This document shows positions 13,675 to 49,395 of a stretch of DNA of 64,000 nucleotides, one piece after another. The translations under genes were made by a program, and so were the position numbers. Below the pieces are notes generated by a model. It did no database searches. It was not told the origin of the DNA and saw nothing but the letters and a program-made list of their open reading frames with translations. The stretch's first letter is position 1; every line of letters begins with the position of its first letter. Source of the stretch: Ignavibacteria bacterium (GTDB lineage Bacteria > Bacteroidota > Ignavibacteria > Kapaibacteriales > Kapaibacteriaceae); the NCBI GenBank assembly GCA_016191145.1, contig JACPPD010000007.1:91158-155157 (forward strand), read 5' to 3'.

Positions 13675-13700
13675 GGCGCCGAAGGCGCCTTTTGGTGTTT
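13675..13700 (+). terminator. GC hairpin plus T-tract (terminator/attenuator-like) in leader of giant gene
   Basis: GGCGCC-GAA-GGCGCC followed by TTTTGGTGTTT, about 80 nt upstream of the SD-supported start at 13779. Confidence 0.4.
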
Positions 13701-13778
13701 ACTAATAAAATGGATAATCAAAAAAGTTTTGAAAACAAGACAGTCATTATCAATCGTAACTCTTTCTCGGAGGATTGT

Positions 13779-19700: not shown

Positions 19701-22700
19701 ACAATCTCTGTTAACTGGCTTGATCAGGCAAATCCGAATGCCTATGTAAGACTCAATCAGGTAAGCGCAGCAGGTTGCTACAACACCAACACATTGCAAG
19801 TGACCGTGAACCCAACACCGACACCGGTAATTGGTGGTCCGGCAATCGTTTGCGACAACAGCGTTTATCAGTACTCTACGCAGAGCAACGCGCCCAACAA
19901 CGTGTATCAGTGGACGATCAGCGGTAATGCCGTTATCAACAATGGTGCAAATCAGGCGACCGTGACAATTCAAACGGGCGCCATCGGTGGAGGAACGCAA
20001 TTTGTTCTCGAGCTTACGGAAACCGTACAGGCTACCACCTGCACCAAGACCGTATCGCGAACCATTGACATTGTTGAGAAGCCGAATCCAACAATCACCC
20101 GCATTACTGCAGGTGGCGCAGTTGGTGGTGCATGCCTCAATCAGACAATCGAGTATGGCGATACCGATCCGGTAGCTGGCAACCCAGGGTACTCCTACAT
20201 GTGGACGGTGTATAACGGTTCAATCAGTGGATCGAACACTGCATCAACTGTGATTGTAACATGGAATACCATTGGCACCGGAACTGTAACACTTGCCAAG
20301 TGGCACACCAGCTCGCAGTGTACAACCACTGTAAGCATGGACGTCAACATCACCGCTCCGCCACAGCCGGCCATTTCCGGTCCGCTGCAGGTTTGCGGTG
20401 AAGGCGAGTACACATACAGCACTCCGTTTGTTGTTGGCAACACCTATGAATGGACAATCAGCGGCAACGGTACTATTACCTCCGGCGCAAACACGAATGC
20501 GGCCGTTATCAAATTTGATAATCCGCTTCCTGGATCAACGCTGAGTGCCGACATAACGGTTACAGAAAGCACAACACTCAGTGGATGTGAAGCAAGTGCC
20601 GTGGTAGAGGTTACTATCAACTACCAGCCACAGGTCCAAAACATAGATCGAATCGCTCCTGCAGGTCCAGTTGGACAAGCATGTCTGATGGATCAGATTA
20701 CCTATGCACTGCCAAACAACAACCCTGGTTCCACCTATCAGTGGACAGTTACCGGTGGCTCCATCGTTGGCAGCTCAACGAACTATGATGTAACCGTACA
20801 GTGGACCAGCGCTGGTGCACAGGTTCTCACAGTAGTTGAAACGGACGCATCTGGAGCCTGCGAAGCAACGTCGACGCTGAACGTCTCCGTGACGTACAAA
20901 CCAACACCTGCTATCTCGGGACCAGTGGCGCCTTGTACAGATGTTGATATCACGTACAGCACGCCAGCAGTGCCTGGCAGCACTTATCAGTGGTCGATTA
21001 CGCCGGGTGTTGGATACATTATGCTTACGGGTACAACATCCAATTACATTACCGTGAGATTCACAGCAGCTGGACCGTACACGATAACGCTTACCGAAGC
21101 AAACGGTCCGTGCGAAGTCACAACTTCTGTTGATATCAACGTTACCCAGCTTCCAACGCCCCTTATCACCAGAGTTTCGCCTCCTGGTAATGCGCAGTTG
21201 GCTTGCGAAGGCGACATTATCACCTATTCAACACCCGAAGTTGCAGGTAATTCCTACCTCTGGACGGTTGTTGGCGGTGGTACAATTCTCGGCTCCAACA
21301 CTTCGAATGAAGTAACAGTACAGTGGGTATCGCAGGGTACACATGCCCTGACAGTTCTCGAGACGACTCCGGGTGGCGGCTGCTTCGATGAAGCCACGCT
21401 TTGGGTTACAGTTACCTACAAGCCGACACCGAACATCAATGGTGCCAACGTTGCTTGTATCGAGAAGATCCTCACGTACTACACACCGGCAGTTGCAGGC
21501 GACACCTATGAATGGAGCATCACACCTGCCAATTCATTCTCTCCAGTTGTTGGCTATCCGAATTCAAACAGCATTACAGTTCAGTGGATTCTCCCTGGTC
21601 TGCATACTGTGACAGTAACTGAAACAAACGTTGCTGGCGGATGTGTGACAACCGTCTCCATGGATGTTCAGGTGAATGAAATTCCTGCACCATTCATCAC
21701 ATCGCCGACAGGTTATGGCAACCCTCCGGGACGCCGACCTGGCATCGTTTGCAACTTCAGTACGCACACGTATACAACGTTCCCAACACCTGGCAACACC
21801 TTCCACTTCTTTGTGACAGGTGGTACCATCATCGGCAACCCATACACTAACCAAGTTGTGGTTGAATGGGGTCCGGCTGGTATAGGTACAATCTGGGTAG
21901 TTGAGACAGTTCCAGGATCCGACTGCATCACGACGAAGCTCGACTCCATCGACATTCGTCCGACACCTGCACCGACCATCACTGGATCCAGCAATCCATG
22001 CGGCAACAGTCTCCAAACCTATTCAACGCCATTCGTTGCTGGTAACAGCTATGAGTGGACAGTTGTGGGAGCTGCATCTTGGTTTGTTGTTCCTGGTAAT
22101 CCGAATCAGATTCGTGTAACGTGGAATAGCCCAGTATGGCCAAACACTATTGCTGGCAGCGTCAGCGTTACCGAATGGGTCACGGATGTACTGCCTGATA
22201 AGTCATGCATCAATTCAACAACCCTTAACGTCACGGTACGCCCGAACCCACCAGTACCGACCATTACCGATACGTCTGTGGTTTGCGCAACCGACCTAAC
22301 GGATACACCGGCTACGATTAATCAGGTCACCTATTCATCGAGCGATCCGGGTGGCGTAAGCTTCCTGTGGACTATCTCGTCGAATGGTACCATCATCGGC
22401 AGCTCGACTTCTTCTTCGGTTCAGGTACAGTGGACAAACACGGGATTGACGCCGACGACAGGCACAATCACTGTTCGCCACACCTCGATACCTTGGGGTT
22501 GCGAAAACACTGCTTCGATGACGGTGACGATCAATCCATTGCCACGTCCTAACATTACTGGCGACCTCTCTGCTTGCCAGAACACAATCCATGCATACAG
22601 TACTCCTGGCTTACCAGGGCATTCTTACAGCTGGACTGTAGGTGGTGGGAACATCATTCGTTCGGGACAGGGAACACCAAACGTTATGGTTGAATGGACA

Positions 22701-24173
22701 CTTCCGGGTACCTATACTCTTACAGTGTCTGAAACCAACACGTACCGTTGTACTGCACAGGATCAGATCAGCGTGACCGTGAATGAGCTTCCGGATGTGA
22801 CGATCACTGCATCAGGTCCGACCACGTTCTGTCAGGGTGGCGACGTCACTCTCACTGCACCAATCGGATTTGAATCATACGTGTGGTCTACTGGCGAGAC
22901 GGCTCGCAGCATCGTGGTTCGTACTACTGGTCAGTATTGGGTTAAGGTCACCAACGAGTTTGGCTGCTCCAACAACTCCGATACAATTACCATTAACGTC
23001 TTCCCAAGCACGCTGCCAATCATTACTGTAAGCGGACCAACAACATTCTGCGAAGGTGGCTCTGTTGTTCTCACCGCTCCGTCGGGCTTCTCTAACTATC
23101 TGTGGTCGACAGGCGAAACATCGCAGTCAATCACGGTTACGCAGAGCGGCACCTACACAGTAACAATTGCAGACAACAACGGATGTACTGGAACATCAAC
23201 AGAAGTCGATGTTGTTGTGAACCCGAAACCGGCTCCAATCCTGACAGTTGTTGGTTCAACAACAGTTTGCTCAGGGGATAGCGTAGAAGTAAGGGCACCG
23301 GCTGGATACGTTTCCTACACGTGGATTTCAACGTCAGCTACCAACTATGGAACTGGACGCACGATCTTCGTTAGCCAGCAAGACGAAATCTACGTTGAGG
23401 TTGTTGATCTGAATGGATGCGTTGGCCAGTCGGATACGGTCAGCATCGAAGTTAGTCAGATTACACAGCCAGTAGTTATTCCAAGCGGACCAACAACGTT
23501 CTGCGAAGGCGGTTCTGTTGTACTCTCAGCTCCAGCAGGGTTTGCGTCCTACATCTGGTCGAATGGTGCTACAACACGCGAGATAACAGTCGAAGATGGC
23601 GGTGAATACTCAGTAACCGTCGTGAATGCTGTTCTCTGCGTGGCTGCTTCATCCAAGACAGAAGTAACGGTGAATCCGCTTCCGGAACGGCCATCAATCG
23701 AGCGCAGAGGAGATACTTTAAAGGCAATCTCCCCTGTAGCTGAAGCTTGGCAGTGGTACAAAAATGGAACTGAGATCACTGGCGCAAATGCTTCGTTCTT
23801 CATCGTTACGCAGGCAGGTATCTACCGCGTAGCAATCAAAGATGACAACACATGCTCGGCCATTTCAAATGGATTCGACGTGATTCTTACCGGTCTTGAT
23901 GATGATGTGGTTGCAGGAAAGGTCGGAGACATCAGACTCTACCCGAACCCAACAACCGGTATGTTCACTATCGAAGCTGATATTGCAAAATCCGGTGTGG
24001 TTTCCATCGAACTCGTCAACACTGTTGGCGAAATTGTGAAGACGATCACCGACGATTCGCAAGGCGGAGCGTTCAAGAAATCCATCGACATGGGAACACT
24101 TGCAAGTGGTGTATATAATGTAGTCGTCACGAGTGCTAACCAGCGCTGGACGGTACGGTTGGTTCGTCAGTAA
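13779..24173 (+). CDS. giant (~3460 aa) cell-surface adhesin-like protein with ~30 tandem Ig-like modules and T9SS C-terminal sorting domain
   Basis: GGAGG 5 nt upstream of ATG 13779, then a signal peptide (RFKAVAATLLSLLVVGSIAASA-QP). A roughly 400-aa N-terminal domain of unknown family is followed by about 26 repeats of ~85-90 aa (consensus P.P.ITGP..VC.G..Y.Y......G.TY.W.V.GG.I..G.......V.W...G...LTV.ET...GC, two Cys each). Four to five modules of a second type follow (GPTTFCEGGSV.LTAP.GF.SY.WS.GET...I.V...G.Y.V.V....GC). The C-terminus (LYPNPTTGMFTIEADIAKSGVVSIELVNTVGEIVKT...LASGVYNVVV...) matches the Por/T9SS CTD pattern. The ORF-track start at 13455 lies upstream of the hairpin and SD and is rejected. 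Confidence 0.85.
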   Translation: MNRFDSALSARQRGGGFVERFKAVAATLLSLLVVGSIAASAQPTLTHVGPPPPAAVFTAGQICSGQTPQFEVGTTAKPVTTYNLVEGNVALEAEVGATDIIGNLGDDQVWKLPAGDIQAAAGGNFIFEFFGQPHNLSTEGLFIGTNGFVRFQDGDPTNDANVELLETGIIAQNIPNVAGPNGAAYFLNIDLAPQAGEDVDWEIQDVNGGDALVLTFRDVSQYNPLLVYPYQQVEVQIILYPNNHPNTPNMIEVRLGNWPDPNVIPARVHTIGVENQCGTVAYADADHNADTWAVANAAGEVAGYSITFDPQAGASQTLTTTLYVVGPNGVINTYSTSSASPDDITRSGATAGTTGIPVSITSNTAVTSVTPAGQLTFFAVVEYEDCIIEVTNTVTLTVNPTPTAVTITGPVNVCVGTNYNYNVPLNNGNTYSWTSTDGFATITPAIPTINANTATVNWATGSNGGTAQTLTSTETTPAGCQAVHTVNVTVYTVPNGTISGPTPVCANSAGNVYSISGGPYGAYQWSITGAPAGTTTGSTTGTTFSVNWGDFAQPGTAQFPQVRVTVSNGPGGLCSFTATPLVVTVNPRPPVKTITASDATPCVNQTITYSVGLTAGNNYAWTAAGGTFAYTSPGAYVNGTPTLNLNSVQLQWTNAGSGRSMTVNETTPQGCLRTTTMSGIVVEALPTPVITGPSINVCGYLASAGGNPSFNTVPNPIQHTYAVAVPNASNTYAWSIPAASGYIVSAGPGTPSPTPGPGITSVSGLNVTQITVRWNNPAISVARTVNVTETSVNNCAGNAPTFNLTVVHTPEAANFSLAGPGITTTDPCANTTGVIYTGTTTLPAGTLQQVYVLAGGTLVSSVDAYPNVTATVNWGNAATGTLRHEATAPTGCVSYEEYVITIRPLPEADITGPSTVCGGTTGQVYGVTNIQNGPITHSWSFASNPGGIASFPGATTNSTVTVDFANPGAQTIVVLQDFITGPGPWLCTNTITYNITVNPTPAAPIIAGADGGGTPEYVCAGTTEGYTVTGIGGGTTTISVVGGTPSQTIFAGAGPFNFNVTWGFVPGGGAGSITATITLNNCPSTQTVFPVTVSPLPAVPIFEYSLDNVTFSTTIPPLCVYNVPFYVRVQNSTAGVTYNWNEYPQICWPTASASDNPGGGTNELWTITNWNCAHPANELYIVAYAQDDITGCISPGTGLPAPWTGLGAPYTSSPAVVVAPVPTPVISGPTDACNNVFDPAGMNGATVDADPTSYTYTYSTPQVVGNSYSWTVTNGYVVATSTDGGSTWTYLNPVATTNGAPILNANTVQVVFYGPTPGKVKVSEIAPGGCQATTLDYNVNLNPFPIAQSLVSWSPEVCSGDWGLLASFNSEATFTYRVETSTDGGSTWTPTPGVGTQTGNGGGLLWFIPPASIPYTAVPPNITTYTFRITAQHTATGCGWYPVSNTDIINVNPKPADNIPVVNTTPLTCEGDNVVVEVGDGGTPSESWVQYQLMRRQIADLSTGAPIAPTPYTYVGSPQVGNGIGSIQLIDNTAPAGGYPLLNADVYQYQVEAVTDMAPAPPPNIQCTTMLAQTVTERVFALPLAQVVSYTPNPICWEADLTVDLSGSQDGVEYEILRDGLSMAPPVIVDGNGGPVQVIVPAVQVMPSNPLFPTAVVFSTQARLRTEAFPPYDRPIPPSSCPNTFGYEEVTVNPKPVAVINGPDVACGPSTVDYTPGPWWGGWPSTYDWAILFAADPYPAPHSDPPVGTTPLFANNTGFGTVDPFTVDWGVHLLSCDGTYNPITVVLQMIETNLFNCPDTAFKEITIEPTLSDAVISGPTQACIYGGFEQHLTTYTISRPNPCIFPAGTTFLWSMPTGPVIGVIRSGQGTPTIVVEWTQTGGTNIGTIQSTVTLPPSHGGCATTVTYDVIVYPLPQPIVVGPTSVCQGDQNVIYTADYYATDNYEWIVVGGTINGGSGSGTIADPGYLSNLAANTISVNWLDQANPNAYVRLNQVSAAGCYNTNTLQVTVNPTPTPVIGGPAIVCDNSVYQYSTQSNAPNNVYQWTISGNAVINNGANQATVTIQTGAIGGGTQFVLELTETVQATTCTKTVSRTIDIVEKPNPTITRITAGGAVGGACLNQTIEYGDTDPVAGNPGYSYMWTVYNGSISGSNTASTVIVTWNTIGTGTVTLAKWHTSSQCTTTVSMDVNITAPPQPAISGPLQVCGEGEYTYSTPFVVGNTYEWTISGNGTITSGANTNAAVIKFDNPLPGSTLSADITVTESTTLSGCEASAVVEVTINYQPQVQNIDRIAPAGPVGQACLMDQITYALPNNNPGSTYQWTVTGGSIVGSSTNYDVTVQWTSAGAQVLTVVETDASGACEATSTLNVSVTYKPTPAISGPVAPCTDVDITYSTPAVPGSTYQWSITPGVGYIMLTGTTSNYITVRFTAAGPYTITLTEANGPCEVTTSVDINVTQLPTPLITRVSPPGNAQLACEGDIITYSTPEVAGNSYLWTVVGGGTILGSNTSNEVTVQWVSQGTHALTVLETTPGGGCFDEATLWVTVTYKPTPNINGANVACIEKILTYYTPAVAGDTYEWSITPANSFSPVVGYPNSNSITVQWILPGLHTVTVTETNVAGGCVTTVSMDVQVNEIPAPFITSPTGYGNPPGRRPGIVCNFSTHTYTTFPTPGNTFHFFVTGGTIIGNPYTNQVVVEWGPAGIGTIWVVETVPGSDCITTKLDSIDIRPTPAPTITGSSNPCGNSLQTYSTPFVAGNSYEWTVVGAASWFVVPGNPNQIRVTWNSPVWPNTIAGSVSVTEWVTDVLPDKSCINSTTLNVTVRPNPPVPTITDTSVVCATDLTDTPATINQVTYSSSDPGGVSFLWTISSNGTIIGSSTSSSVQVQWTNTGLTPTTGTITVRHTSIPWGCENTASMTVTINPLPRPNITGDLSACQNTIHAYSTPGLPGHSYSWTVGGGNIIRSGQGTPNVMVEWTLPGTYTLTVSETNTYRCTAQDQISVTVNELPDVTITASGPTTFCQGGDVTLTAPIGFESYVWSTGETARSIVVRTTGQYWVKVTNEFGCSNNSDTITINVFPSTLPIITVSGPTTFCEGGSVVLTAPSGFSNYLWSTGETSQSITVTQSGTYTVTIADNNGCTGTSTEVDVVVNPKPAPILTVVGSTTVCSGDSVEVRAPAGYVSYTWISTSATNYGTGRTIFVSQQDEIYVEVVDLNGCVGQSDTVSIEVSQITQPVVIPSGPTTFCEGGSVVLSAPAGFASYIWSNGATTREITVEDGGEYSVTVVNAVLCVAASSKTEVTVNPLPERPSIERRGDTLKAISPVAEAWQWYKNGTEITGANASFFIVTQAGIYRVAIKDDNTCSAISNGFDVILTGLDDDVVAGKVGDIRLYPNPTTGMFTIEADIAKSGVVSIELVNTVGEIVKTITDDSQGGAFKKSIDMGTLASGVYNVVVTSANQRWTVRLVRQ

Positions 24174-24201
24174 GAATTGACCACTGCAATATGAAAATAT
24201 A

Positions 24202-24236
24202 GAAGGCCGCACCTAGGTGCGGCCTTCTTTATTTTG
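24202..24236 (+). terminator. rho-independent terminator of giant gene
   Basis: GAAGGCCGCAC-CTAG-GTGCGGCCTTC perfect 11-bp stem followed by TTTATTTTG, about 30 nt after the stop codon. Confidence 0.85.
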
Positions 24237-24263: not shown

Positions 24264-24431
24264 AGTTCAGGGTTCCAGGTTCAAGGTTCCAGGTTCAGGG
24301 TTCCAGGTTCAGGGTTCAAAGTTCAAGGTTCAAAGTTCAAGGTTCCAGGTTCAGGGTTCAAGGTTCCAGGTTCAGGGTTCAAGGTTCCAGGTTCAGGGTT
24401 CCAGGTTCCAGGTTCCAGGTTCATAGTTCCA
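24264..24431. repeat. perfectly phased heptanucleotide tandem repeat (RGGTTCM)x24
   Basis: 24 contiguous 7-nt units (AGTTCAG GGTTCCA GGTTCAA ... AGTTCCA) with no indels. Sits between the terminator and the SD/start of the next gene. The track ORF 24217..24426 is only a translation of this repeat. Confidence 0.9.
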
Positions 24432-35847: not shown

Positions 35848-36933
35848 ATGTCGGTGCTTTCCCGTAAGCAGCCTTTTCATCGCGTCTCAGTAATCTGGAC
35901 CGCCATTGCTATATCGGCTGTTGTGCTGCTGTTCCTTGCAGTTGCCGGAGTGTATACTCCAAATATTGCAGCACAGTTTGGCGCTCTGCGCCTTGCGGCT
36001 CTGATTGTAAGCATTGTCCTGATTGGATTTGGAATTCATTGGGCACACATACGCTCATTGGAGCGGCGTGTGCTGCATCCACTGCAACGGGTAGCAGACA
36101 TCACACAGGCAATTGTTGATGGTGCAGTGTCGGGTCAGATAGATCTTGATAAGGACACCGTTCAGGATGTTGTAATAGTGTCGGAGGCAGTGAATAGGCT
36201 TGCACAAAAGGCTACTCGCGACGTTTCCGAAATGAAGCGCCTCGAGCGCGTCAGGAGTGAGTTTATCGGCAACGTTTCGCATGAATTGCGTACACCAATA
36301 TTCAGCGTCCAAGGCTACCTTGAAACCTTGCTGGACGGCGCCATAGACGACGCCAACGTTAGCAGGCAATTTTTAGAGAAGGCTTATCAGAATGCACTGA
36401 GATTAAATGCACTTCTTAGCGATCTGATAGATATATCGCGAATCGAAAGTGGTGAACTGCGTTTGTCGTTTCGGTATTTCGATATCGCAGATGTATTAAA
36501 AGAGGTTGTCCAGACAATGGAAATCAGGAGCCTGCAAAAAAACGTTCACATTGCAATCGACGTTGAGCCGAATGCGGACTTAACTGTGTACGGCGATAAA
36601 GAACGACTAACGCAGGTGATGACGAATCTGATAGACAATGCAATTAAGTATAGCGTAGAAAAGGGATTTGTAACAGTTAAAGCCTTCAGACACGATGGCC
36701 ACGTAAGGATATCCGTTAGTGACAATGGCATTGGCATTGCGCCAGAGCATCATCCAAGAGTGTTTGAACGGTTCTATCGCGTAGATCGGGACAGATCGAG
36801 GGCAGTGGGTGGAACCGGACTCGGTTTGGCGATTGTTAAACATATTTTGGAAGCGCACCAAGCACCAATTACTCTTCACAGTGAGCAAGGGGCTGGAACA
36901 ACGATAAGCTTCGAGTTGAAGGCAGCTACCTGA
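35848..36933 (+). CDS. two-component sensor histidine kinase
   Basis: Two N-terminal TM helices, an H-box (FIGNVSHELRTPI) and an HATPase_c domain with N and G1/G2 boxes (LIDNAIKYS, DNGIGI, GGTGLGLAIV). Confidence 0.85.
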   Translation: MSVLSRKQPFHRVSVIWTAIAISAVVLLFLAVAGVYTPNIAAQFGALRLAALIVSIVLIGFGIHWAHIRSLERRVLHPLQRVADITQAIVDGAVSGQIDLDKDTVQDVVIVSEAVNRLAQKATRDVSEMKRLERVRSEFIGNVSHELRTPIFSVQGYLETLLDGAIDDANVSRQFLEKAYQNALRLNALLSDLIDISRIESGELRLSFRYFDIADVLKEVVQTMEIRSLQKNVHIAIDVEPNADLTVYGDKERLTQVMTNLIDNAIKYSVEKGFVTVKAFRHDGHVRISVSDNGIGIAPEHHPRVFERFYRVDRDRSRAVGGTGLGLAIVKHILEAHQAPITLHSEQGAGTTISFELKAAT

Positions 36934-39793
36934 TTACGGTTATACGCTCGGGTAGAATGGTCTGGCTGGTTCGCATTGTAAGAGTATAAGAACCAACGGG
37001 AACCTGCATTAAATTCACCAGGAGTGACTGACCGGACTGATACCAGCTTGCGGAATGCGTAGTCCCATGAATGTCAATAAGATTACAATCGTCTATTTGA
37101 ATGCCAACTTCAAGTCCAATCATTACGTGCGTCGCCGCCGGCTGAGGATACACAACATGTACAGCCTGAGTTTGGTCGGTTACCGACGTCAACTGCTCAA
37201 TTGAGAAATCGTCAAAATAAAATCCGTCAGACTGCTTGGTGACATTCGACCTGAACCTCAAACGGAACAGAAGAGTGTCGCGTACTACCAATTCACGCCC
37301 TGTTATCCTGGCCGTCCCATATCGCCATGCATCGTCACCCTTTGTTGTGTCTGCCCAGCGATCATCGAGCGATGAGTTCCACCATGCTAGTACGCTCCAT
37401 TTACCATCGAAACCATATCCAGATTTTGTTTCCAAGAACATTGTATCACCTGGATCGATAAATGCAGCAACGCGCCACGAGAGTATTACATCATTTCCTT
37501 CCGTGGAAGGAAATGGTTCGGAAAATGGGTAGAGATAGACGGTGTCTTTGGATGATCGCGCGTAAGGTCCGACGGAAGAATCGGTGTACGATGCCGGCTC
37601 GGAGAAATAAAAATTGTTAGTTGTGTCCCATGATCCTTTAGTGACAAGGTATCTGGGCTTGGCACTGAAATTTTCAAAGTAGTTGGCTAGGCTGCCAGCA
37701 TACACAACAGTAGTATCTGAGAAGGGAGAGCTATTGCTCTCATCGTCGACAACAGCAGAGCTGATTCTATACCAACCACGTTCGCCAACATATACATTAA
37801 ACGTAATTGTCCTGCCGGTATCACTCGGTTCAACATCAAAATCGAATACAAACGAATTCGCCCGAATCCGGATAGTATCAAGATTTACGAGTTTGGTAAC
37901 GCCATCGAGCCGCGTAGTGGGGATGGTTAATACCACTGTTACAGAATCAAGTTCGCTACCGTTCGCAGACATGACGGTGGGAATGCCCGGCAATTTGGAT
38001 CCACCAGCAAATGCAGAAGCATAACGAGGTGAACTGACAGATGGCCCGGAAGCGGCAACGAGTTTGTATTGATATTCAGAGTACCTTACAAGACCAGTAT
38101 CTTTCCATGATAGGATGGAGACCGGAGTTTGAAAAACTGAATCTCCATCACGATAGATGATAAAAAACGTGTTTGCTGAGTCAAGGGGCTGGCCAAACGA
38201 TCGCTGCGTAATAGCACTCCACTCCAGCAATATCGATGTTGGCTCATCAGCTAATGTTGTTGCTGTAAACTCCGCGGGTGGTTCGGGTGCATCAACCGGT
38301 ATCACGCTTGTATAGACGTCGTTGTCTGATTTGTTCGATGGAGTCACATTCCGCATGTCAACCCACGACGGATAAATACGCCCCTTATAAAAATCACATC
38401 CGCTATAGTCACCAGCAAAGGTGTTTCCCTGGAAAGGATTCTGACGCAGATCATTTATTCCATCGCCAACCAGCCTGTCCGTCCAGTTGCTTCCGCCGTC
38501 AGACGTGTAGCTGACGTAGCTGTTTACGAGAAGGTTTTGTGCATCATTCCTACTATCAAGGTACATAACTGCCACATCGCCATTAGTCGGATCTAGCGCA
38601 ATCCACGGCCAAAATTGATCGTTAGTTGTATCGGAATGAACAATCCGAGGAGACGACCATGTTTGGCCATTATCCGTCGAGCGTGAAAAGTAAACATTTG
38701 GATAATTATCGGCAGCCCAGCACAAATACAGCCATCCATTTCGTGAACCGCCAGTGTTGTCGATAACAAGTGTCGGATACGCTTCAGCGCGAACAACTCC
38801 CTTTACACGCGAATTAGTCTGCTTGCTGATTTCGATCTTTTCGCCGAACGGCTGATAGGTGTGGATTATCTCAGGTTGAGTCCACGACGCACCTCCATCC
38901 GAAGACCGCGCGTACCGTATAGCACTCTCCGTCCCGCTGTTCCACACTACATGTACATTTCCATTGGGTGCCGTTCGTGCAAGTGGAAAACTCTGCCCAA
39001 ATGTAGGATCATCGCTGGAGCTGGCAAATCGATTGCTGACGTTTGTTGGTGCCGACCATGTTAAACCACGGTCGGTGCTAAATGAAATTACAATCTGCGT
39101 GGATGTATCTGCATTGATAACTCGTTTCCAGGGAATGTATATCCGACCCCTATACGGCGAGGTTCTGCTGGTATCCACGTGGATGTAGTATTTATCTTCA
39201 AATGCACTATCGGCCGTTTGCTGCCCTGTGTGAATGATGACGGGCACATGCTTCGGGTTCCACGTTGCACCGGCATCGGTGGTTACCGAAACAAATACAC
39301 CATTCTCACCAAACTGCGAATTATCGACTCGGTTAAAACCGCCATAACACAAAAATCCTCGTCCCTCGTGGTCGAAGCTTACAGATGGATCGTTGCTCGA
39401 CGCCCAACCCACCCTTGCTTTCCCGAGATTAGTGTTCTGCCATGTAAGGCCTCCATCGGTGGAGTGATACGCCCACGTCGACGAACCATCGCGATAATCA
39501 ACAGCAGATGCAATCAGATGTAATGGATTGGTGGGGTTTACCGCAATTGATGATTCATTCTGTGTGGGTAGCGGGTCATCCTCTTCGATAATCGTGTTCA
39601 CATTCAGGAATAACGACGGGAATGGAACTGACTGCATCATCGGAATCATCGGTAGCTTTTGAGCCCCTTCACTTTGTTCAATGGGTGTTGGATGAGCTCG
39701 TTCAAAATTCCGTTCGTGTGGATTTACCGTCTGTGCATGGAGCAGAATTTGAACAGCCAGTAACATAACTACAGCAATAACGGCGGCTTTCAT
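36926..39793 (-). CDS. secreted BNR/sialidase-like beta-propeller protein with FN3-like region and T9SS C-terminal domain
   Basis: Signal peptide MKAAVIAVVMLLAVQILLHAQ, with the internal Met start preferred because it avoids overlap with the upstream gene. Six or more Asp-box motifs (STDGGLTW, TDAGATW, STDRGLTW, SSDGGASW, STDNGQTW, TSDGGSNW). The C-terminus (VVYPQPAATHVMIGLEV..IDIHG...GSYTL) is CTD-like. Confidence 0.7.
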   Translation of the reverse strand: MKAAVIAVVMLLAVQILLHAQTVNPHERNFERAHPTPIEQSEGAQKLPMIPMMQSVPFPSLFLNVNTIIEEDDPLPTQNESSIAVNPTNPLHLIASAVDYRDGSSTWAYHSTDGGLTWQNTNLGKARVGWASSNDPSVSFDHEGRGFLCYGGFNRVDNSQFGENGVFVSVTTDAGATWNPKHVPVIIHTGQQTADSAFEDKYYIHVDTSRTSPYRGRIYIPWKRVINADTSTQIVISFSTDRGLTWSAPTNVSNRFASSSDDPTFGQSFPLARTAPNGNVHVVWNSGTESAIRYARSSDGGASWTQPEIIHTYQPFGEKIEISKQTNSRVKGVVRAEAYPTLVIDNTGGSRNGWLYLCWAADNYPNVYFSRSTDNGQTWSSPRIVHSDTTNDQFWPWIALDPTNGDVAVMYLDSRNDAQNLLVNSYVSYTSDGGSNWTDRLVGDGINDLRQNPFQGNTFAGDYSGCDFYKGRIYPSWVDMRNVTPSNKSDNDVYTSVIPVDAPEPPAEFTATTLADEPTSILLEWSAITQRSFGQPLDSANTFFIIYRDGDSVFQTPVSILSWKDTGLVRYSEYQYKLVAASGPSVSSPRYASAFAGGSKLPGIPTVMSANGSELDSVTVVLTIPTTRLDGVTKLVNLDTIRIRANSFVFDFDVEPSDTGRTITFNVYVGERGWYRISSAVVDDESNSSPFSDTTVVYAGSLANYFENFSAKPRYLVTKGSWDTTNNFYFSEPASYTDSSVGPYARSSKDTVYLYPFSEPFPSTEGNDVILSWRVAAFIDPGDTMFLETKSGYGFDGKWSVLAWWNSSLDDRWADTTKGDDAWRYGTARITGRELVVRDTLLFRLRFRSNVTKQSDGFYFDDFSIEQLTSVTDQTQAVHVVYPQPAATHVMIGLEVGIQIDDCNLIDIHGTTHSASWYQSGQSLLVNLMQVPVGSYTLTMRTSQTILPERITVIR

Positions 39794-41739
39794 AAGGGAC
39801 TCCAACCAAAGTCTCGCACCATTGTTTGTACGGCGTGTTCAAACCGACCTACATTGTCGTCGCGTTCGTTTCTCATCATCGTAACAATATTTATCATCGT
39901 CAGTAGCCTTGCCGGTGATTTTCTATCGTGTGTAATACGTGTTGCCTCTGTGAGCAGGGCACGCCCTTTCTGTTCGTCGTTATTTGCCAGCGCAAGCACT
40001 GCACGAACGTTTAGCAGCATTACCTTGTCGTCTGCCGACCTTACCGATTCTACCCCCGCTTCGTCGAGCAGTGCCTCTGCATCCTTCATCGCCTGCATTG
40101 CAATGCACGCCCTTGCAGCAATGCAGCGAGCAATTATCCGCTCATGACTTGTGAGAGTCTTCCGCTGCAATACATCTAATGCTAATCGGCGGGCACTCTG
40201 AGGCTCATTGTTTAACAGGTGCTCACACGCAGATCCCAGAATGATTACTGCCATTTGATGCCGTTCAGAAGATGTGCTTTCCGGTGCCGCAGGTTCTTCG
40301 GAAAGATCGACGGTTTCTGATGAAACCGTTTTAATCAGGAGTTCCGCCCTGATAAAATCCGAAGTATCGAATGCACCTATCATCTCAGCTCCAACTGCGG
40401 CAGACTCCAGCATGGCATTCATGGTAGCTTCATTCTCTGCTTCCGAACTATGTGCTGCTATGAATGCTGCAATCTGAAAACGAATTTCATCTACTGACGC
40501 TGCGTTGTGCTCCCGCGATAGAATTTCGACGATGCGTTGATGTATGTGTTTTCGTTCTTCATATTCCGGGTAGTGCAGGAAGTGCAGAAATGCAACGCTC
40601 GTTGTAAATTCATACGTCGTGGTTTTAAGTCCATACCTTGTCCGCATACCCACACTCTTTACACATCCTGTTTGCATTTGAATTCTGCGCAGTGTCCTGA
40701 CGGCCGACAACACATCGGTGTTCATCAGAGACGAAGCAAGGAAGGCAGTGAATTCTCTGCCCTCTGCTGCACAAAGCGATAGCGTGATAGCATCCTGCTC
40801 AGAGATTTCGTGAAGTGTAAAATCTGTGTAGGGATGATCGCTCAGCTTCACTCCGCTCTCTGATAGAGCAGTGTCGGGGATTACACCATCCTTACCGATC
40901 TGATTTGTGCGTTCGAAGTACCGAATGTATTCTACGAGGACTCCGGGGATTCCGGCGCTCCGCTCATGAAGCATCTGAACCTGCTTATCCGTTGGTTTTA
41001 GGTAGGGGGCATGTAATTCAATAATCTTCGCAACATCATCAATATTTATAGTATCTAGGTGAAGAGTTCGCGCAGCGGCATTTGTATGCTGCAGTAGCGA
41101 TGCTAATTGGAGATTTGATCTATTGGCAACAGATGGAGTTACACACCAAATCAGCAGGATTGGCTGGGCAGATGGTTCTTCCAGCAGCCTCTTTACTACT
41201 TCAACACTTTGCGCATCCGACCAGTGTCCATCGTCGATTAAAAGTATCAGCGGAGTTTGGGCAGCAACCCGACGCAATGTTGTGATGCAATCATCGACAG
41301 CGGCGCGTTTTTTTTGCTGAAGGGCAGCCGTTTCCTTTCTGAATTCAGTAACGTCTTGCGATATCGCTTTGATGGCGTAAAAAATGTCGCCGGCTATCGG
41401 TATCGATGCCAGCACAGACATCCCAATATTCACAGCGAGTCGCTTTCGGGCAGCCCTCTCTGTGTTTAGGAAGACCTGCTCCAGAGCATATCCAAACGGC
41501 TGCAGCGGCTGAATTGCCGATACGTTAAACGAGCCTATTGGTGGGCGACAATCTACCCTGACGATTGAATGTTCACCTACGCTGCCACCGAATGTTTCCT
41601 GAACGGCACTTAACACATAGCTCTTACCCGAACCCGGTTCGCCGGTAATGAACAATACATCGCCCTTGCCCTTGCGCCATTGTGCCACCGACTCATCGAT
41701 ACGACTTGCAAGATGTGTTCGTCCAATAATCTTCATCAA
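39790..41739 (-). CDS. STAND-type NTPase (AAA_16-like P-loop + TPR-like helical repeats), paralog 1
   Basis: Walker A GEPGSGKS, Walker B LILLIDDGHWSD and a C-terminal ~350 aa of alpha-helical TPR-like repeats. Similar in architecture and motifs to the protein at 47161..49395. Its start overlaps the upstream membrane-protein gene by 4 bp. Confidence 0.7.
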   Translation of the reverse strand: MMKIIGRTHLASRIDESVAQWRKGKGDVLFITGEPGSGKSYVLSAVQETFGGSVGEHSIVRVDCRPPIGSFNVSAIQPLQPFGYALEQVFLNTERAARKRLAVNIGMSVLASIPIAGDIFYAIKAISQDVTEFRKETAALQQKKRAAVDDCITTLRRVAAQTPLILLIDDGHWSDAQSVEVVKRLLEEPSAQPILLIWCVTPSVANRSNLQLASLLQHTNAAARTLHLDTINIDDVAKIIELHAPYLKPTDKQVQMLHERSAGIPGVLVEYIRYFERTNQIGKDGVIPDTALSESGVKLSDHPYTDFTLHEISEQDAITLSLCAAEGREFTAFLASSLMNTDVLSAVRTLRRIQMQTGCVKSVGMRTRYGLKTTTYEFTTSVAFLHFLHYPEYEERKHIHQRIVEILSREHNAASVDEIRFQIAAFIAAHSSEAENEATMNAMLESAAVGAEMIGAFDTSDFIRAELLIKTVSSETVDLSEEPAAPESTSSERHQMAVIILGSACEHLLNNEPQSARRLALDVLQRKTLTSHERIIARCIAARACIAMQAMKDAEALLDEAGVESVRSADDKVMLLNVRAVLALANNDEQKGRALLTEATRITHDRKSPARLLTMINIVTMMRNERDDNVGRFEHAVQTMVRDFGWSPL

Positions 41740-42713
41740 CGATTATCCTCATGCAAATTCGATTTCGGAGTAGCCATTAAAGCGCGAACAAGAAGCTCAG
41801 TTTCACTATTCGTGAGTCCCTCGATGGTGTGCCCCCTTGCATCAGAGAAAATCGATCTGTCGATGGAATCCTCTGCGCGTCCGTACATCAAGATTGCGGC
41901 GTATGTGATAAGGAGAATAAATTCCAGTCCCAGCGCTGACAGCACCATGCTGGGATCTGTTGCCGGCAGGAACTTAAGCCCCCTGACACCAATCACGATA
42001 ATGAGAATTGCCGCTCCCATGTATACCAAGCCTAGCACGGCATTGCTATAGCGGTCTGTGAAATACTCACGCATGTAAAATTTTATAGCATCGTGTGCTT
42101 TTAGAAATCTAAAAATACCGGAAGAGTTTCTCCACAACACTGCGCGACGCAGAAGTTCCAGATCCGGAAATGTGATGTGATATATATCGGCCAGATCGTG
42201 CAATCTTCTAGTATCGGAATTTATTATCTCGTTAGTTAGAGAAAGAATCTCCTGAGGCGTGTGTTCTCCGAACTGAATAAAGGCAAGCCGATCCAACGCA
42301 AGAAGTATTTCCCTTTCAATCTTTTGCCGAAGGTAACCGGAGGGGAAAAGAGACGTCAGCAAGGCCGCAAGAGTAAAGCTGCCTACGAGAACCAGCGGCG
42401 TGAGTGCGAGTATGGGTCTGAACAGATATTCCGCAACATACACGTTCCGTGGATCGACGAGTGCCCACACCGTAATCAAGCCAGTGGTAACGTGTTCAAC
42501 GGGGCGGTTCTCCGTCATTTGGTAGGAGACGACGGCTCCATCGTAAACCACACGGCTTCGGAGGAACGTCTCGAAAAACAGTTCAAACAGCGGTACGAAC
42601 ACGCAGTAAAACAGTGCCACAGCCAGCAATCCAATCAACATCCAAAATGCGACAACCTGCAATGGCGTGTGCCTGCTGAGCTCAACAACTCGGGTACGGG
42701 TGGTACTTGACAT
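41736..42713 (-). CDS. hypothetical integral membrane protein (2+2 TM with ~110-aa soluble middle)
   Basis: 325-aa ORF with two TM helices near the N-terminus and two near the C-terminus. No recognisable family. Translationally coupled to the STAND NTPase gene. Confidence 0.5.
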   Translation of the reverse strand: MSSTTRTRVVELSRHTPLQVVAFWMLIGLLAVALFYCVFVPLFELFFETFLRSRVVYDGAVVSYQMTENRPVEHVTTGLITVWALVDPRNVYVAEYLFRPILALTPLVLVGSFTLAALLTSLFPSGYLRQKIEREILLALDRLAFIQFGEHTPQEILSLTNEIINSDTRRLHDLADIYHITFPDLELLRRAVLWRNSSGIFRFLKAHDAIKFYMREYFTDRYSNAVLGLVYMGAAILIIVIGVRGLKFLPATDPSMVLSALGLEFILLITYAAILMYGRAEDSIDRSIFSDARGHTIEGLTNSETELLVRALMATPKSNLHEDNR

Positions 42714-44469: not shown

Positions 44470-44518
44470 CATGTTATGAAAATGAAATGGGTCGCCCGGT
44501 ATATACCGAGCGACCCAT
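44470..44518 (-). terminator. rho-independent terminator downstream of dnaK
   Basis: 9-bp stem ATGGGTCGC/GCGACCCAT, extended by the internal palindrome CCGGTATATACCG. Followed on the minus strand by the U-rich TTCATTTTCAT. Confidence 0.5.
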
Positions 44519-44545: not shown

Positions 44546-46465
44546 TTACTTGTCTTCGTCCACAACCGTGAAGTCGGCATCTTCAACCTTCTGTCCACCC
44601 GGTGCCGCTCCGGCTGCCGATGATGGCTCTCCGTCTTGAGTACTTTGCTGCTGACTACCAGTAGCCGATGCTTCCTGATACATCTTCGTGGATGCTTCGC
44701 TCCACAATTGGTTCAGGGCATCCATTGCCGGACGGATATCGGAAGCATTGTTCTTAATTGCATCCTGCAGCCTATCCTTAGCCTTTGTAATCCGATCAAC
44801 GGTGTCGGTATCGAGTTTGTCCTTGAATTCATTGAGCTGTTTCTCTGTACTGTAAACAAGGTTATCAGCTTGATTCCTCAGCTCAATTTCTTCCTTGCGC
44901 TTCTTGTCTTCGGCAGCGTGTTCCTGAGCATCGCGTTTCATCTTCTCAACTTCGTTCTTATCCAAACCACTCGAGCCAGTGATGCGAATGTTCTGTTCTT
45001 TGTTAGTTGCTTTGTCTTTTGCAGTAACACTAAGAATTCCATTCGCATCGATATCGAAAGTTACCTCGATCTGCGGAATGCCGCGAGGCGCCGGAGGGAT
45101 GCCGTCGAGATGAAATTTGCCGAGTGTTTTGTTGTCGGCAGCCATTGGCCTCTCGCCCTGCAGGATGTGAATCTCAACAGATGGCTGACTATCCGACGCA
45201 GTCGAGAACGTTTCTGTTTTCCTATGCGGAATGGTTGTGTTTGACGATATCATCGGAGTCATTACGCTGCCCATGGTTTCGATTCCAAGGGTAAGGGGCG
45301 TTACATCGAGCAGCAACACATCCTTAACATCGCCGGAGAGCACGCCTCCCTGGATTGCAGCACCAACTGCAACAACTTCGTCGGGATTAACACCCTTCGA
45401 TGGATCCTTGCCAAAGAAGTTCTTTACCAATTCCTGAATCTTTGGAATTCTGGTTGAGCCCCCTACAAGAATTACTTCATCAATTTGTGAAGGAGTAAGA
45501 TTTGCATCTCGCAATGCAACTTCGCACGGTTTAAGAGACCGATCGAACAGATCTGTACACAACTGTTCGAATTTTGCTCGCGTGATGTTTACGTTGAGGT
45601 GCTTGGGACCTTCCTGTGTGGCAGTGATGAAGGGTAAATTCACATCTGTCTGCAACATTTGTGATAGCTCCATCTTGGCCTTCTCTGCTGCCTCGCGCAA
45701 ACGCTGCAGAGCCATCGGATCCTTGCGAAGGTCTATACCTTCCTGCTTCTGAAATTCATCTGCGAGATAGGTAACAAGACGGTGGTCGAAGTTATCGCCA
45801 CCCAGATGCGTGTCGCCATTTGTAGACTTCACCTCGAACACGCCTTCGCCAATTTCAAGAATGGAGATGTCGAATGTTCCGCCTCCAAGGTCGTACACGG
45901 CAACAGTCTGATTCTGACCTTTTTTATCAAGTCCGTACGCAAGCGCTGCTGCAGTAGGCTCGTTGATAATTCTTCGTACCGTTAAGCCTGCGATTTCGCC
46001 TGCATCCTTTGTTGCCTGACGTTGTGAATCGTTGAAGTATGCTGGTACTGTAATCACGGCTTCGGTGATTTTTTCGCCCAGATAATCTTCGGCTGTTTGC
46101 TTCATCTTCTGAAGTATCATGGCCGATATTTCAGGGGGCGAGTAATGCCTTCCGTCGATATCAACTCGTGCCGTGTTGTTGTCGCCCGAAACAACGGCGT
46201 ACGGAACTGCCTTGGCTTCGTCTGTTACCTCGCCAATCTGACGTCCCATAAATCTCTTTATGGAATACACGGTGTTTTTTGGATTGGTAACAGCCTGACG
46301 TTTCGCAGCTTGTCCTACGAGACGCTCGCCACCTTTAGTGAATGCCACAACAGAGGGTGTAGTACGCATACCTTCGCTGTTTGCAATTACAATCGGCGAA
46401 GCGCCCTCCATTACGGCAACCACAGAGTTCGTGGTTCCCAGGTCGATTCCGATAATTTTTGCCAT
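44546..46465 (-). CDS. dnaK: molecular chaperone DnaK (Hsp70)
   Basis: 639 aa starting [18 protein letters not shown], with the DLGGGTFD and [12 protein letters not shown] motifs. AAGGAAA SD 8 nt upstream. Confidence 0.95.
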
Positions 46466-46477
46466 TAATTCTTTTCC

Positions 46478-46918
46478 TTACTTGATAGAGATTTCTTGTT
46501 CCTTAGGTTTTGATGGCTCTGCTTTCGGGATCGAAACATTCAGAACGCCATTCTCAAACGATGCATCGACTTTTGATGTGTCGAGATTATCAGGCAATGC
46601 AAAGGAACGTGTGAAAGAACCCCAGCTGCGTTCTACACGCAGGAAATTCTTTTCTTCCGTTTTTTCTTCGCGTTTCTTTTCTCCACGAATCGTCAGGACG
46701 TTACCATCGGTGATGGCGATCTTCACGTCACTCTTTACCAATCCCGGAAGTTCTGCATGAAATGTAATGCTGGTATCTGTGTCGGCAATATCAACACGCG
46801 GTGAAAAGTCTCCGATTTCAAATCGGACGCCACCTCGGTTTACATCGTCGAAAACTTCGCCTACTCTGCGGAGCATATTATCGAATCCGCGGAACGGATC
46901 AACTTTGATGATTCCCAT
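46478..46918 (-). CDS. small heat-shock protein, Hsp20/alpha-crystallin family
   Basis: Alpha-crystallin domain (FHAELPGLVKSDVKIAITDGNVLTIRGEKK...ENGVLNVSIP). The start was chosen at MGIIKVDPF because AGGAGA sits 6 nt upstream. The longer track ORF running to 47047 is rejected. Confidence 0.8.
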   Translation of the reverse strand: MGIIKVDPFRGFDNMLRRVGEVFDDVNRGGVRFEIGDFSPRVDIADTDTSITFHAELPGLVKSDVKIAITDGNVLTIRGEKKREEKTEEKNFLRVERSWGSFTRSFALPDNLDTSKVDASFENGVLNVSIPKAEPSKPKEQEISIK

Positions 46919-47014
46919 TTTGGGTCTCCTAGAAAAATGTGACTGGTACATTGTATTTCTCCTTGAGGTGAACCAACCTGGTAAAAGCGTGCCAAGCACG
47001 ATAATCTGCCATTC

Positions 47015-47053
47015 TGACGCATGGGGATCTGAATGATGATTCTTCATGCGTCA
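47015..47053. promoter_or_regulatory. inverted repeat TGACGCATG-N21-CATGCGTCA in divergent hsp20 / STAND-2 intergenic region
   Basis: Perfect 9-bp arms (10 of 11 when extended) centred between the two divergent starts. Candidate operator. Confidence 0.4.
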
Positions 47054-47160
47054 AAATGGTGTTCTACCCTCTGCCATTTGTTCATACCCTTAGGTATCCC
47101 GAAGTTCGTAGCCCTATGAGAGCCAGCTTACTAAAAAATCTATGTACTCCGAAGGAGAAG

Positions 47161-49395
47161 ATGCCTGTCACGTTTTTGCTCGGTGATGCAGGCATGGGCA
47201 AAACAACACTCCTGCGCGAAGTTGAAGTACACTTGAATGCGCATGGCGATGAGCGATGTGTTTTAGCTGATTGTTCTGCACCTGTTGCCGGTATCGATGT
47301 TGGTAGTGTCGAAGCGTTGCATCCATGGATTGCAGTGATGAAAGCGTTGGCAACAACCAACGACAAGTCTAAGACACAATCGCTTGTGACAGACCTTGCA
47401 ATGGCATGGATAAAATTCGTTCCAATTGTTGGCGACCTTGTAGAATCAACGGTGAGTACCGTTGGCATCGTCCGACGTCACAGGCAATCAACCACTGAAC
47501 AACCCACAAGTAAGGAGCATGTATTTCAACAATGCATTTCATTTTTTAATGCCGTTGGTGAAAAACAAAAACTTGTTATCATTATTGACGATGCACATTG
47601 GGCCGATAATTCTTCAGTCAACCTGCTATTTGCATTGGCGCGATCTGGCACTCCCAATATCAGATACATTGTAGCCTACAGACCATTCGACGTGGCAAGT
47701 ACACATGGCGGAGAAGAGCATCATCTTGCTCGCATCAATCGTGAACTCACACGTTATGAATTGTGCGAAAACATCGAAGTACCACCTTTGACCGATGAAG
47801 AGGTCCGTAGTCTGTGCGGCACAATTGCCGGCCATTCTGATGATGAAATCGTTCAGAAAGTAAAGAAATTTAGCGGCGGAAACCCTCTGCTCGCGTTGGG
47901 ATGGATGGAAGGGGGCAAGGTAGCCGCATCCGTCGAAGCAATCGTGGTGGAGCGCATTCGCAGATTGGACACCGATTTGCGCAGCTTGCTGATGCTTGCC
48001 GCTGCAGAGGGTGAGACATTCACTTCGCACGTTATACGCCAACTCTCCACGTATCAGCCAATGGCAATTGCATCAATGTTGCGCAGAGCCGAAGCTGAGC
48101 ATGGTCTGATAAGGGCTCTGGGCAAGATGCCTGTGTATTCAACGGAAACACCGGCGTATGTATTTAGCAACCAGGCTATTCACCGAGCTTTGGAGGCAAT
48201 GCTCGGAACCGAGGAGCGAGAACTTGCTCACGGTACGATTGCAGATATTTTGACTGATGAGAGATCCAGCCTCGGCATGTCGGATTCAGAGTGGATGGCT
48301 GTGAGTGTCCGGCTTGCTGTGCATTTGGAATTGTCTGACAGGCAGCAAGAATCGGCCGCGGTTTACATGGAAATTGCACAGCGGGCATGGCAGCTCTATG
48401 CAGAGCACGAGGCATTGACGGCAATCTCAAATGTGTATCGGTTACTAGGTTCAGTTGCATCGGCAATCAGCGCCGACAAAGAGATAAGGTTGAACGCTCT
48501 CGATCTTGAATCGCGTATCCATCAATTTGCCCACCGTATGTCCGAGGTAGAACATAGTACTGAAATGCTGAGAACGTTTGCTCTTGAATGTGGAAGCAGC
48601 AAGGCTGCAGTAAACGCTCTTGTCCGTCGGGCACAGATTGCAAACATGAATGGCAATCCCGAAGAAGTACACACCTATGCGATACAAGCGCTGGATGAAG
48701 CTACGCGAATAGCATACGTCGACGGAATGCGTGGCGCTACATCGATGTTGGGTATGTGGCACGAAGCCAATGGAAGACTCGATGATGCAGAAGCATGCTT
48801 TAGGGCGACGTTCGAGTACGCAGTTACTGAACAATCGGACAAATTCAAAGCAACATCGTTAGTAAACATTGGTAGAATCTTCACTCACAGAAGTATGTAT
48901 CAAGAAGCGTTAGAGTGTTTTAACAACGCTGTGGAAATGTTGGAGCGTGAACGGGATTGGGACGGCATGGCGAGAGCACTAAGTAACGTAGGGATTTGTC
49001 GGGTAGAACTCGGTTTGTTTCCAGAAGCGGCAGCGGCATACGAACGTGCGCTCGAACTAAACGAAAGAATTGGGAGCAGGATCGGCGCGTCGTCGATTCG
49101 AACAAATCTTGGTCAGTTGTTGCTTCGGCAAGACAAGGTAGAAGAATCGTTGGAGCAATTCGAAAAGAGCATCAACCTGAAACGGGAGCTCGCGGACCCT
49201 TATGGTTTGGCTATCGCACTCTATTCAAAGGGACTTGCACTCAGTGAAAGCGGCCGGTTTGAAGAGTCCTTTGAAATCCTGGAAGAGGCAATACAATCGG
49301 CTGAAGAGTCGGGGGAAATGTTAGTCATCAAGGAAGTCAACCGCATCACAGAGATTGTGCGCAGGGCATCTGCCGGGCGAAAGTCAGAACATTAA
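47161..49395 (+). CDS. STAND-type NTPase (AAA_16-like P-loop + TPR repeats), paralog 2
   Basis: AGGAG SD 6 nt upstream of MPVTFLLGDAGMGKTTLL (Walker A). Walker B VIIIDDAHWADNS and a C-terminal run of clear TPR units (NIGRIFTHRSMYQEALECFNNAVEM; SNVGICRVELGLFPEAAAAYERALEL; ...). No DNA-binding or effector domain is evident. Confidence 0.7.
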   Translation: MPVTFLLGDAGMGKTTLLREVEVHLNAHGDERCVLADCSAPVAGIDVGSVEALHPWIAVMKALATTNDKSKTQSLVTDLAMAWIKFVPIVGDLVESTVSTVGIVRRHRQSTTEQPTSKEHVFQQCISFFNAVGEKQKLVIIIDDAHWADNSSVNLLFALARSGTPNIRYIVAYRPFDVASTHGGEEHHLARINRELTRYELCENIEVPPLTDEEVRSLCGTIAGHSDDEIVQKVKKFSGGNPLLALGWMEGGKVAASVEAIVVERIRRLDTDLRSLLMLAAAEGETFTSHVIRQLSTYQPMAIASMLRRAEAEHGLIRALGKMPVYSTETPAYVFSNQAIHRALEAMLGTEERELAHGTIADILTDERSSLGMSDSEWMAVSVRLAVHLELSDRQQESAAVYMEIAQRAWQLYAEHEALTAISNVYRLLGSVASAISADKEIRLNALDLESRIHQFAHRMSEVEHSTEMLRTFALECGSSKAAVNALVRRAQIANMNGNPEEVHTYAIQALDEATRIAYVDGMRGATSMLGMWHEANGRLDDAEACFRATFEYAVTEQSDKFKATSLVNIGRIFTHRSMYQEALECFNNAVEMLERERDWDGMARALSNVGICRVELGLFPEAAAAYERALELNERIGSRIGASSIRTNLGQLLLRQDKVEESLEQFEKSINLKRELADPYGLAIALYSKGLALSESGRFEESFEILEEAIQSAEESGEMLVIKEVNRITEIVRRASAGRKSEH

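Follow-up and report, generated by a model that had tools for sequence, protein, structure and literature searches.

A predicted sigma-54-type promoter with recurring upstream TGnCA sites before the hsp20-dnaK operon of an Ignavibacteria bacterium

The hsp20-dnaK chaperone operon described here lies on a 64,000-nucleotide stretch of DNA from an Ignavibacteria bacterium (contig JACPPD010000007.1 of assembly GCA_016191145.1; the whole stretch is called the window below, and positions are counted from its first letter), where it shares an intergenic spacer with a gene coding for a STAND NTPase. Our results suggest that a sigma-54-type (-24/-12) promoter on the minus strand, at 46980-46995, drives transcription of this operon, and that an array of upstream TGnCA-N3-TGnCA sites serves the promoter. 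These sites would presumably be bound by a dimeric or oligomeric regulator encoded elsewhere, most likely the enhancer-binding activator needed by sigma-54; that sigma-54 is used, which protein binds the sites and with what sign, and that stress induces the operon are all inferred. A long palindrome in the same spacer, taken in the original prediction for a non-canonical heat-shock or stress operator, would not be an operator, and the NTPase, proposed there as its cognate regulator or sensor, would not belong to the circuit. We give this reading, with the upstream sites phased along the DNA, a probability of roughly 0.58.

The promoter-like box and its upstream sites

The box was compared among 18 upstream regions, namely 16 distinct regions upstream of hsp20 from Kapabacteria/Ignavibacteria metagenome-assembled genomes (MAGs) and two regions upstream of dnaK from loci without hsp20. 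A scan of a genome collection with Hsp20 had added 12 Kapabacteria/Ignavibacteria MAG loci, all of them hsp20-dnaK, and the two genes are neighbours in 16 loci. Every one of the 18 regions carries TTGGCA(C/T)(R)-N4-T at 60-110 nt from the start codon, on its 5' side; none of them departs from TTGGCA or from the T at box position 11, and TTGGCA is followed by C in 16 regions and by T in two. The -24 element of the window is a TTGGCAC at 46989-46995 of the minus strand, and the 12 added loci all have TTGGCAC(A/G)-N4-T placed 76-111 nt 5' of the ATG. Orientation of the box and its distance to the gene are conserved in all loci, including L002 and L003, where hsp20 is missing and the box stands directly upstream of dnaK at about 100 nt. 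When the spacers are aligned, the block GGTAAAAGCGTGCCAA (46980-46995) is retained at 15-16 of 17 positions in the close loci and at 13 of 17 in L006.

Upstream of the box, the proximal TGnCA-N3-TGnCA site keeps its distance of 11 nt in 8 of 8 loci of the sub-clade (within 1 nt in L003), with half-sites that vary between TGTCA/TGACA and TGCCA/TGGCA; the block as a whole (47006-47019) is identical to the window at 10-12 of 14 positions in the orthologs. The distal site, for which the direct repeat TCTGCCATT is further evidence, matches the window at 14 of 14 positions in L004 and at 13 of 14 in both L001 and L005, and sites at comparable distances are found in L006 and L028. Motifs of this kind are strongly enriched: the 140 nt upstream of the boxes contain CTGCCA/TGGCAG 19 times against 1.3 expected, and CTGCCAT 11 times against 0.53 expected (20-fold). 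Further sites are phased at about 31-33 bp, with centres at -18, -50 and -80 in L028; in L015-L017, TGyCAT begins at -46, -79 and -110. The composite of box and sites, searched in 322 kb of DNA of the lineage, occurs almost only at chaperone operons, with 3 stray matches.

Promoters of this design have been described in related bacteria. Mapped transcription starts of Flavobacterium psychrophilum place a sigma-54 -24/-12 motif (SM4) before groES-EL, lon, dnaK, grpE-dnaJ, htpG and clpB (PMC9723704), and a cross-phylum survey from 2025 predicted sigma-54 promoters before GroEL, IbpA, GroES, GrpE, DnaJ and DnaK, with enrichment in Bacteroidota and Planctomycetota (PMC12316311). According to the supplementary table of RpoN domain architectures in the same survey, the cultured Ignavibacteriota Ignavibacterium album and Melioribacter roseus each possess a complete RpoN (PMC12316311). 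Because such promoters are documented in Bacteroidota, we place the box of the window with the sigma-54 chaperone promoters of that phylum. The likeness consists of a perfect TGGCAC box of the -24/-12 type immediately 5' of dnaK and other chaperone genes, within the same Fibrobacteres-Chlorobi-Bacteroidetes (FCB) superphylum, and of the predicted need for an activator encoded elsewhere. The differences are that the operon of the window is hsp20-dnaK, that it belongs to the Ignavibacteriota/Kapabacteria, that its -12 element has no GC, and that a quasi-palindromic site keeps a constant 11 nt to the box while additional sites follow with a phasing of about 32 bp; moreover, the start was mapped in F. 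psychrophilum, while in this lineage it is predicted. In E. coli, the small heat-shock protein gene ibpB has a sigma-54 promoter that is auxiliary beside sigma-32. The window likewise combines a small heat-shock protein gene with a sigma-54-type promoter, with the difference that its box is the only conserved promoter-like element. The design, a sigma-54-type chaperone promoter with upstream sites, is thus already known from related bacteria, and what is atypical here is the -12 element.

Several observations weigh against a sigma-54 promoter of this kind. The GC of the canonical -12 element, which is a defining feature of sigma-54 promoters, is missing: the window has TACC and its relatives have TTTC(A/T) or TCGT, so that box positions 13/14 are CC in the window and C/T, G/T or C/A in the relatives, and no GC is present within N5-7 either. 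No Bacteroidota -12 consensus was found in the literature. Neither rpoN nor a gene for an enhancer-binding protein (PF00158) is encoded in the 64-kb window or next to hsp20 in relatives, and the search for enhancer-binding proteins beside hsp20 in ten relatives gave only histidine kinases, proteins with type IX secretion system tails and unknowns. With its centre near -44 relative to the predicted start, the proximal site is closer than classical enhancers and fits a repressor equally well. Finally, the palindrome of the spacer, with 14 of 15 paired positions, is statistically unusual, and a strain-specific function of it is possible.

These points bear on another explanation, in which the TTGGCAC box and the TGnCA sites all bind one ordinary transcription factor, such as a heat-shock repressor, and the promoter belongs to a lineage-specific type of the sigma-70 family with no part for sigma-54. 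The core of the box, TGGCA, equals the TGGCA half-site of the upstream sites, the proximal site abuts the box in the manner of an operator, and the -12 GC is absent. However, the box has invariant flanks of its own (TTGGCAC-R and the T at +11) at a fixed spacing, unlike the degenerate sites, and in the sister phylum these genes are known to be under sigma-54 control. No conserved -10 or -35 was found elsewhere either: a sigma-70-like promoter was not detected on either strand of the spacer, and 17 nt after TTGGCA there is no conserved -10. We therefore consider the single-factor explanation unlikely. A terminator scan of the spacer likewise returned nothing relevant.

Two other sequences of the window resemble such boxes. 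A near-canonical sigma-54 -24/-12 box, TTGGCACGGCTCTTGTG at 13277-13292 (plus strand), lies in the 183-nt gap between obg and a giant open reading frame (ORF) of 3572 aa (13455-24173) and may be an example of a more standard sigma-54 promoter in this genome. The sequence TGGCACTGTTTTACTG at 42604-42619 (minus strand) closely resembles the hsp20 box TGGCACGCTTTTACC, and it is probably a chance match, located in the N-terminal coding part of a membrane-protein ORF.

The palindrome in the spacer

The inverted repeats described in the original prediction are exact (TGACGCATG at 47015-47023 and CATGCGTCA at 47045-47053, separated by 21 nt) and extend to arms of 15 nt that are complementary at 14 of 15 positions. 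Perfect 9-nt inverted repeats with a loop of up to 40 nt are common, with 27 in the window against about 11 in Markov simulations, whereas arms of 15 nt with at most one mismatch are rare and occur at 3 loci in 64 kb where 0.05 are expected, the other two being terminator-like hairpins (24194-24235 and 44487-44518). Because of this excess of the 15-nt repeats, the palindrome is real and non-random. It was also right to call it neither CIRCE nor HAIR, since scans that tolerated up to 3 mismatches came back empty, for CIRCE across the window and for HAIR across the region. CIRCE/HrcA and HAIR/HspR share with it the presence of inverted repeats upstream of chaperone operons, but those operators are conserved across species and recur within their regulons, whereas the palindrome of the window does neither.

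Conservation was assessed in four orthologous loci (L001, L004, L005 and L006) that were retrieved via the NTPase (52-86% protein identity) and keep the divergent arrangement. Identity of the right arm to the window is 11/15, 7/15, 8/15 and 4/15 in these loci, and that of the loop is 8-13/21, which is the level of other, unconstrained stretches of the spacer and indicates neutral evolution; the substitutions in the arms are not compensatory. The left arm overlaps the conserved proximal site, and the right arm overlaps none of the conserved sites. In the window, the half-site TGACGCATG has no other exact copy, and its matches with 1 mismatch are fewer than expected by chance. An exact-pattern scan of metagenome contigs returned 22 matches, all of them long hairpins in unrelated DNA of different GC content, and tblastn detected neither hsp20 nor dnaK nor the NTPase in their vicinity. 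Taken by itself, the palindrome is probably a strain-level feature and not an operator, because its right arm and loop are unconserved, its changes are non-compensatory and related copies are absent. The proposal of a heat-shock or stress operator is thus not borne out for the palindrome, with no copies near chaperone genes in the scanned contigs; the broader idea, that the spacer is regulatory and belongs to neither the CIRCE nor the HAIR type, holds. Read on the plus strand, the right arm (CGTCAAAATGGTG) resembles a degenerate inverted copy of the proximal site, which is how a long inverted repeat could have arisen here.

It could still be argued that the 15-nt palindrome has a function in this strain, as an operator or a DNA cruciform that adds control on hsp20-dnaK, on the NTPase gene or on both. 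Its statistical rarity and its place in a divergent promoter region agree with this, as do degenerate inverted repeats with comparable position and spacing in L004, L001 and L006 (TGCCAGT...ACTGGCA, 37 bp centre to centre). The neutral, non-compensatory evolution of the right arm and loop and the lack of a second copy in the window, or of related copies in the scanned metagenome contigs, make this explanation distinctly improbable.

An RNA hairpin, whether it acts on the NTPase mRNA as part of its 5' untranslated region or on hsp20 as a thermometer or attenuator, is extremely unlikely. When the minus-strand RNA is folded, the palindrome forms the main stem of both the minimum-free-energy and the centroid structure, but it is situated 5' of the predicted hsp20 transcription start (by about 41-91 nt), has no U-tract, gives no match in Rfam at a permissive E-value and shows neither retention of the arms nor covariation among orthologs. 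The alignment of hsp20 leaders contains no supported structure: folding five leaders together gave a weak consensus (-4.9 kcal/mol) that is free of covariation, and no conserved RNA structure was found. The hsp20 5' leaders of the distant relatives L009-L019, about 80-110 nt long, bear clade-specific conserved palindromes of their own, for example AATGCAATTGCA in L015-L017 and CACACAGCATGCTGGTTGTCGTG in L009 and L011, and these may be extra operators or RNA elements.

The STAND NTPase beside the chaperone operon

The gene on the other side of the spacer was correctly recognized as coding for a second AAA_16 protein with tetratricopeptide repeats (TPRs), transcribed from the plus strand away from hsp20 and dnaK on the minus strand. 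Pfam gives AAA_16 with 63 bits (4.9e-17) and TPR_12 with 93 bits (1.3e-26), besides KAP_NTPase (26.7 bits), NB-ARC and TPR_MalT, and the protein is 100% identical to an NCBI protein annotated as a tetratricopeptide repeat protein. It has the features of a STAND NTPase, that is, a P-loop nucleotide-binding oligomerization domain (NOD), Walker A, an hhhhDD Walker B, helical and winged-helix domains and a repeat sensor. An AlphaFold model built on 14 sequences reached a pLDDT of 86 and a pTM of 0.75, with low confidence at residues 56-65 and in a PIVGD insert at 97-130. Foldseek against the PDB ranks 6mfv_A, a STAND protein carrying a TPR sensor, first among full-length matches to the model (E=3.8e-13, 750 columns); the other Foldseek matches are TPR proteins, and a sequence search of the PDB returned TPR matches and nothing else. 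With the STAND-TPR group (PH0952-type, PDB 6mfv; MalT/AfsR/AAA_16) the NTPase shares the P-loop NOD, the DDxHWAD Walker B, the helical/winged-helix region and the C-terminal TPR superhelix, and it differs from that group by having no helix-turn-helix (HTH), kinase, cyclase or other effector domain and by a hydrophobic insert with PIVGD, conserved and modelled with low confidence, that is located between Walker A and B.

The end of the gene at 49395 agrees with the original prediction, and its start is probably at 47116 and not at 47161 (which would give 744 aa), because the 15 additional codons MRASLLKNLCTPKEK are conserved in orthologs, where the proteins begin MRA(S/T)LLK (MRAxLL), and 6 of the 9 nucleotide differences that these codons show between the window and L004 are synonymous. 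With this start the intergenic region measures 197 bp instead of the 242 bp given before.

Paralogy with the AAA_16 protein encoded at 39790-41739 was likewise upheld (BLASTP, 24% identity over 394 aa, E=1e-22). Each protein contains a P-I-x-G-D segment (FVPIVGDLVEST and SIPIAGDIFYAI), conserved in the family, and both share GxxGxGK[ST] and DDxHW[AS]D; GxxGxGK[ST] and DDxHW are invariant in the family alignment. The Walker B motifs IIIDDAHWAD and LLIDDGHWSD are present, as had been noted, and conserved in the family, although hhhhDD-HWAD is a general AAA_16 signature and nothing special to this pair. The first paralog matched AAA_16 but no TPR in Pfam, so its description as an AAA_16+TPR protein did not stand.

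The suggestion that the STAND-TPR NTPase is a sensor of proteotoxic stress with control over hsp20-dnaK draws on its genomic position. The gene is divergent from hsp20 and shares the spacer with it in five distinct close loci (the window, L004, of which L007 is a repeat, L001, L005 and L006), it lies within a few kb of dnaK in 7 of 7 distinct loci that have it, and its paralog and a membrane protein, called hyp325 below, come after dnaK in the same lineage. On the other hand, as the original prediction had itself noted for HTH domains, no DNA-binding domain (LuxR HTH, SARP or similar) is present in Pfam or NCBIfam, only 17 residues precede the first strand of the model and the C-terminus ends in TPR; Sigma54_activat (PF00158, with the GAFTGA loop) is absent from the 23 Pfam matches of the NTPase and from its paralog. 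The neighbourhood is also variable: in L002 and L003 the gene comes immediately after Nramp or DinB, in the same orientation and in an apparent operon, and from the neighbourhood of 12 loci with the same promoter architecture it is absent. L008, L028 and L009-L019 retain the promoter and the sites, and no such NTPase is found within their fetched flanks. About 12 orthologous clusters of the NTPase were found versus more than 150 homologs of hyp325, a count in which the word-index pre-filter may under-count TPR-rich proteins, and genes of unrelated function (TerC, NlpC/P60 and polA) are as syntenic as the NTPase. The NTPase is a syntenic neighbour in one sub-clade, a regulatory role in chaperone control is unsupported, and we regard the sensing model as very unlikely.

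An extended form of this idea seems barely probable. In it, a chaperone-linked stress-sensing module would consist of the lineage-specific membrane protein at 41736-42713 and of both STAND NTPases, which have no effector domain and lie on either side of dnaK in this lineage (47116-49395 and 39790-41739); their TPR or propeller sensors would detect unfolded or envelope proteins and act by protein-protein contact on a sigma-54 activator using the TGnCA sites of the shared spacer.

The insert at residues 97-130 of the NTPase (47404-47505), a conserved hydrophobic AWIKFVPIVGDxIEST, is the longest low-confidence stretch of the model; the KAP_NTPase match (26.7 bits, cut-off 20) spans residues 18-315, and it is conceivable that the insert is a membrane-associating loop as in KAP NTPases. 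An assignment to the Avs-like anti-phage STAND proteins was tried and rejected: PADLOC gave a generic TPR match only, and a structural match to Avs3 was weak and partial (rank 26, TM 0.24). PADLOC found nothing specific to defence in both NTPases, the membrane protein and the BNR ORF.

Organization of the locus and implications

The features of the locus are listed in Table 1. The hsp20 start at 46918 is the equivalent of the starts of its orthologs. An in-frame ATG 11 codons earlier (46919-46951, minus strand) has a strong Shine-Dalgarno sequence, AAGGAG. L001, L004 and L005 retain the extension, as does L006, where a deletion of 3 nt leaves the frame intact; more distant hsp20 orthologs use the downstream ATG.

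Table 1. Position of the main features of the locus in the window.
Feature	Coordinates	Strand	Description
Sigma-54-type box TTGGCACGCTTTTACC	46980..46995	-	GG at 46993/46992; -12 is TACC instead of TTGC; predicted transcription start ~46968
Proximal site CTGCCATTCTGACG	47006..47019		TGnCA-N3-TGnCA, quasi-palindromic, 11 nt upstream of TGGCAC
Distal site CTGCCATTTGTTCA	47071..47084		65 bp from proximal site, 32-45 nt upstream of NTPase start codon
Palindrome	47009..47059		Arms 47009-47023 and 47045-47059 (14/15), loop 47024-47044; probably strain-specific
hsp20	46478..46918	-	146 aa, PF00011 2.1e-26; alternative in-frame ATG at 46951
dnaK	44546..46465	-	639 aa, PF00012 895 bits; 12 nt 3' of hsp20
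Terminator-like hairpin	44487..44518		After dnaK
NTPase gene	47116..49395	+	759 aa (probable start), AAA_16 NOD and ~12 TPR-like helical pairs; no effector domain
Paralogous AAA_16 NTPase	39790..41739	-	649 aa; between membrane-protein ORF 41736-42713 and BNR ORF 36926-39805

The membrane protein hyp325 (minus strand) is a multi-pass protein of 325 aa that has no match in Pfam, NCBIfam or PADLOC. Those of its homologs whose source is named come from Kapabacteria, Ignavibacteria, 'Chlorobi' or 'Bacteroidetes' MAGs, and it stands directly after dnaK in L002, L003, L008 and L028; a universal linkage of hyp325 and AAA_16 to dnaK was rejected, as hyp325 stands alone in L026 and L027. The 649-aa AAA_16 ORF and the 959-aa BNR-repeat ORF that follows (36926-41739 together, minus strand) overlap by 16 nt, and their counterpart in the 'Chlorobi' MAG locus L028 (8975-13786) is a single gene of 1603 aa with AAA_16 and BNR (and a Por tail), which points to either a split gene or an unusual STAND-propeller fusion. 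Elsewhere in the window, a 7-nt unit (GTTCAAG/GTTCCAG) is repeated in tandem about 23 times at 24265-24431, between the end of the giant ORF and the next gene and just after the terminator-like hairpin at 24194-24235.

For annotation, this analysis corrects the start codon of the NTPase and cautions against taking a palindrome from a single genome for an operator. If the proposed promoter is confirmed, its perfect -24 element and non-GC -12 element would make it an unusual promoter class, and TGnCA-N3-TGnCA, with a phasing of about 32 bp, is supplied as a candidate site for the activator. The sigma-54 proteostasis regulon would then extend from Bacteroidota to the Ignavibacteriota/Kapabacteria, which would support the view that the FCB superphylum uses sigma-54, and not sigma-32 or HrcA, for its core chaperones.

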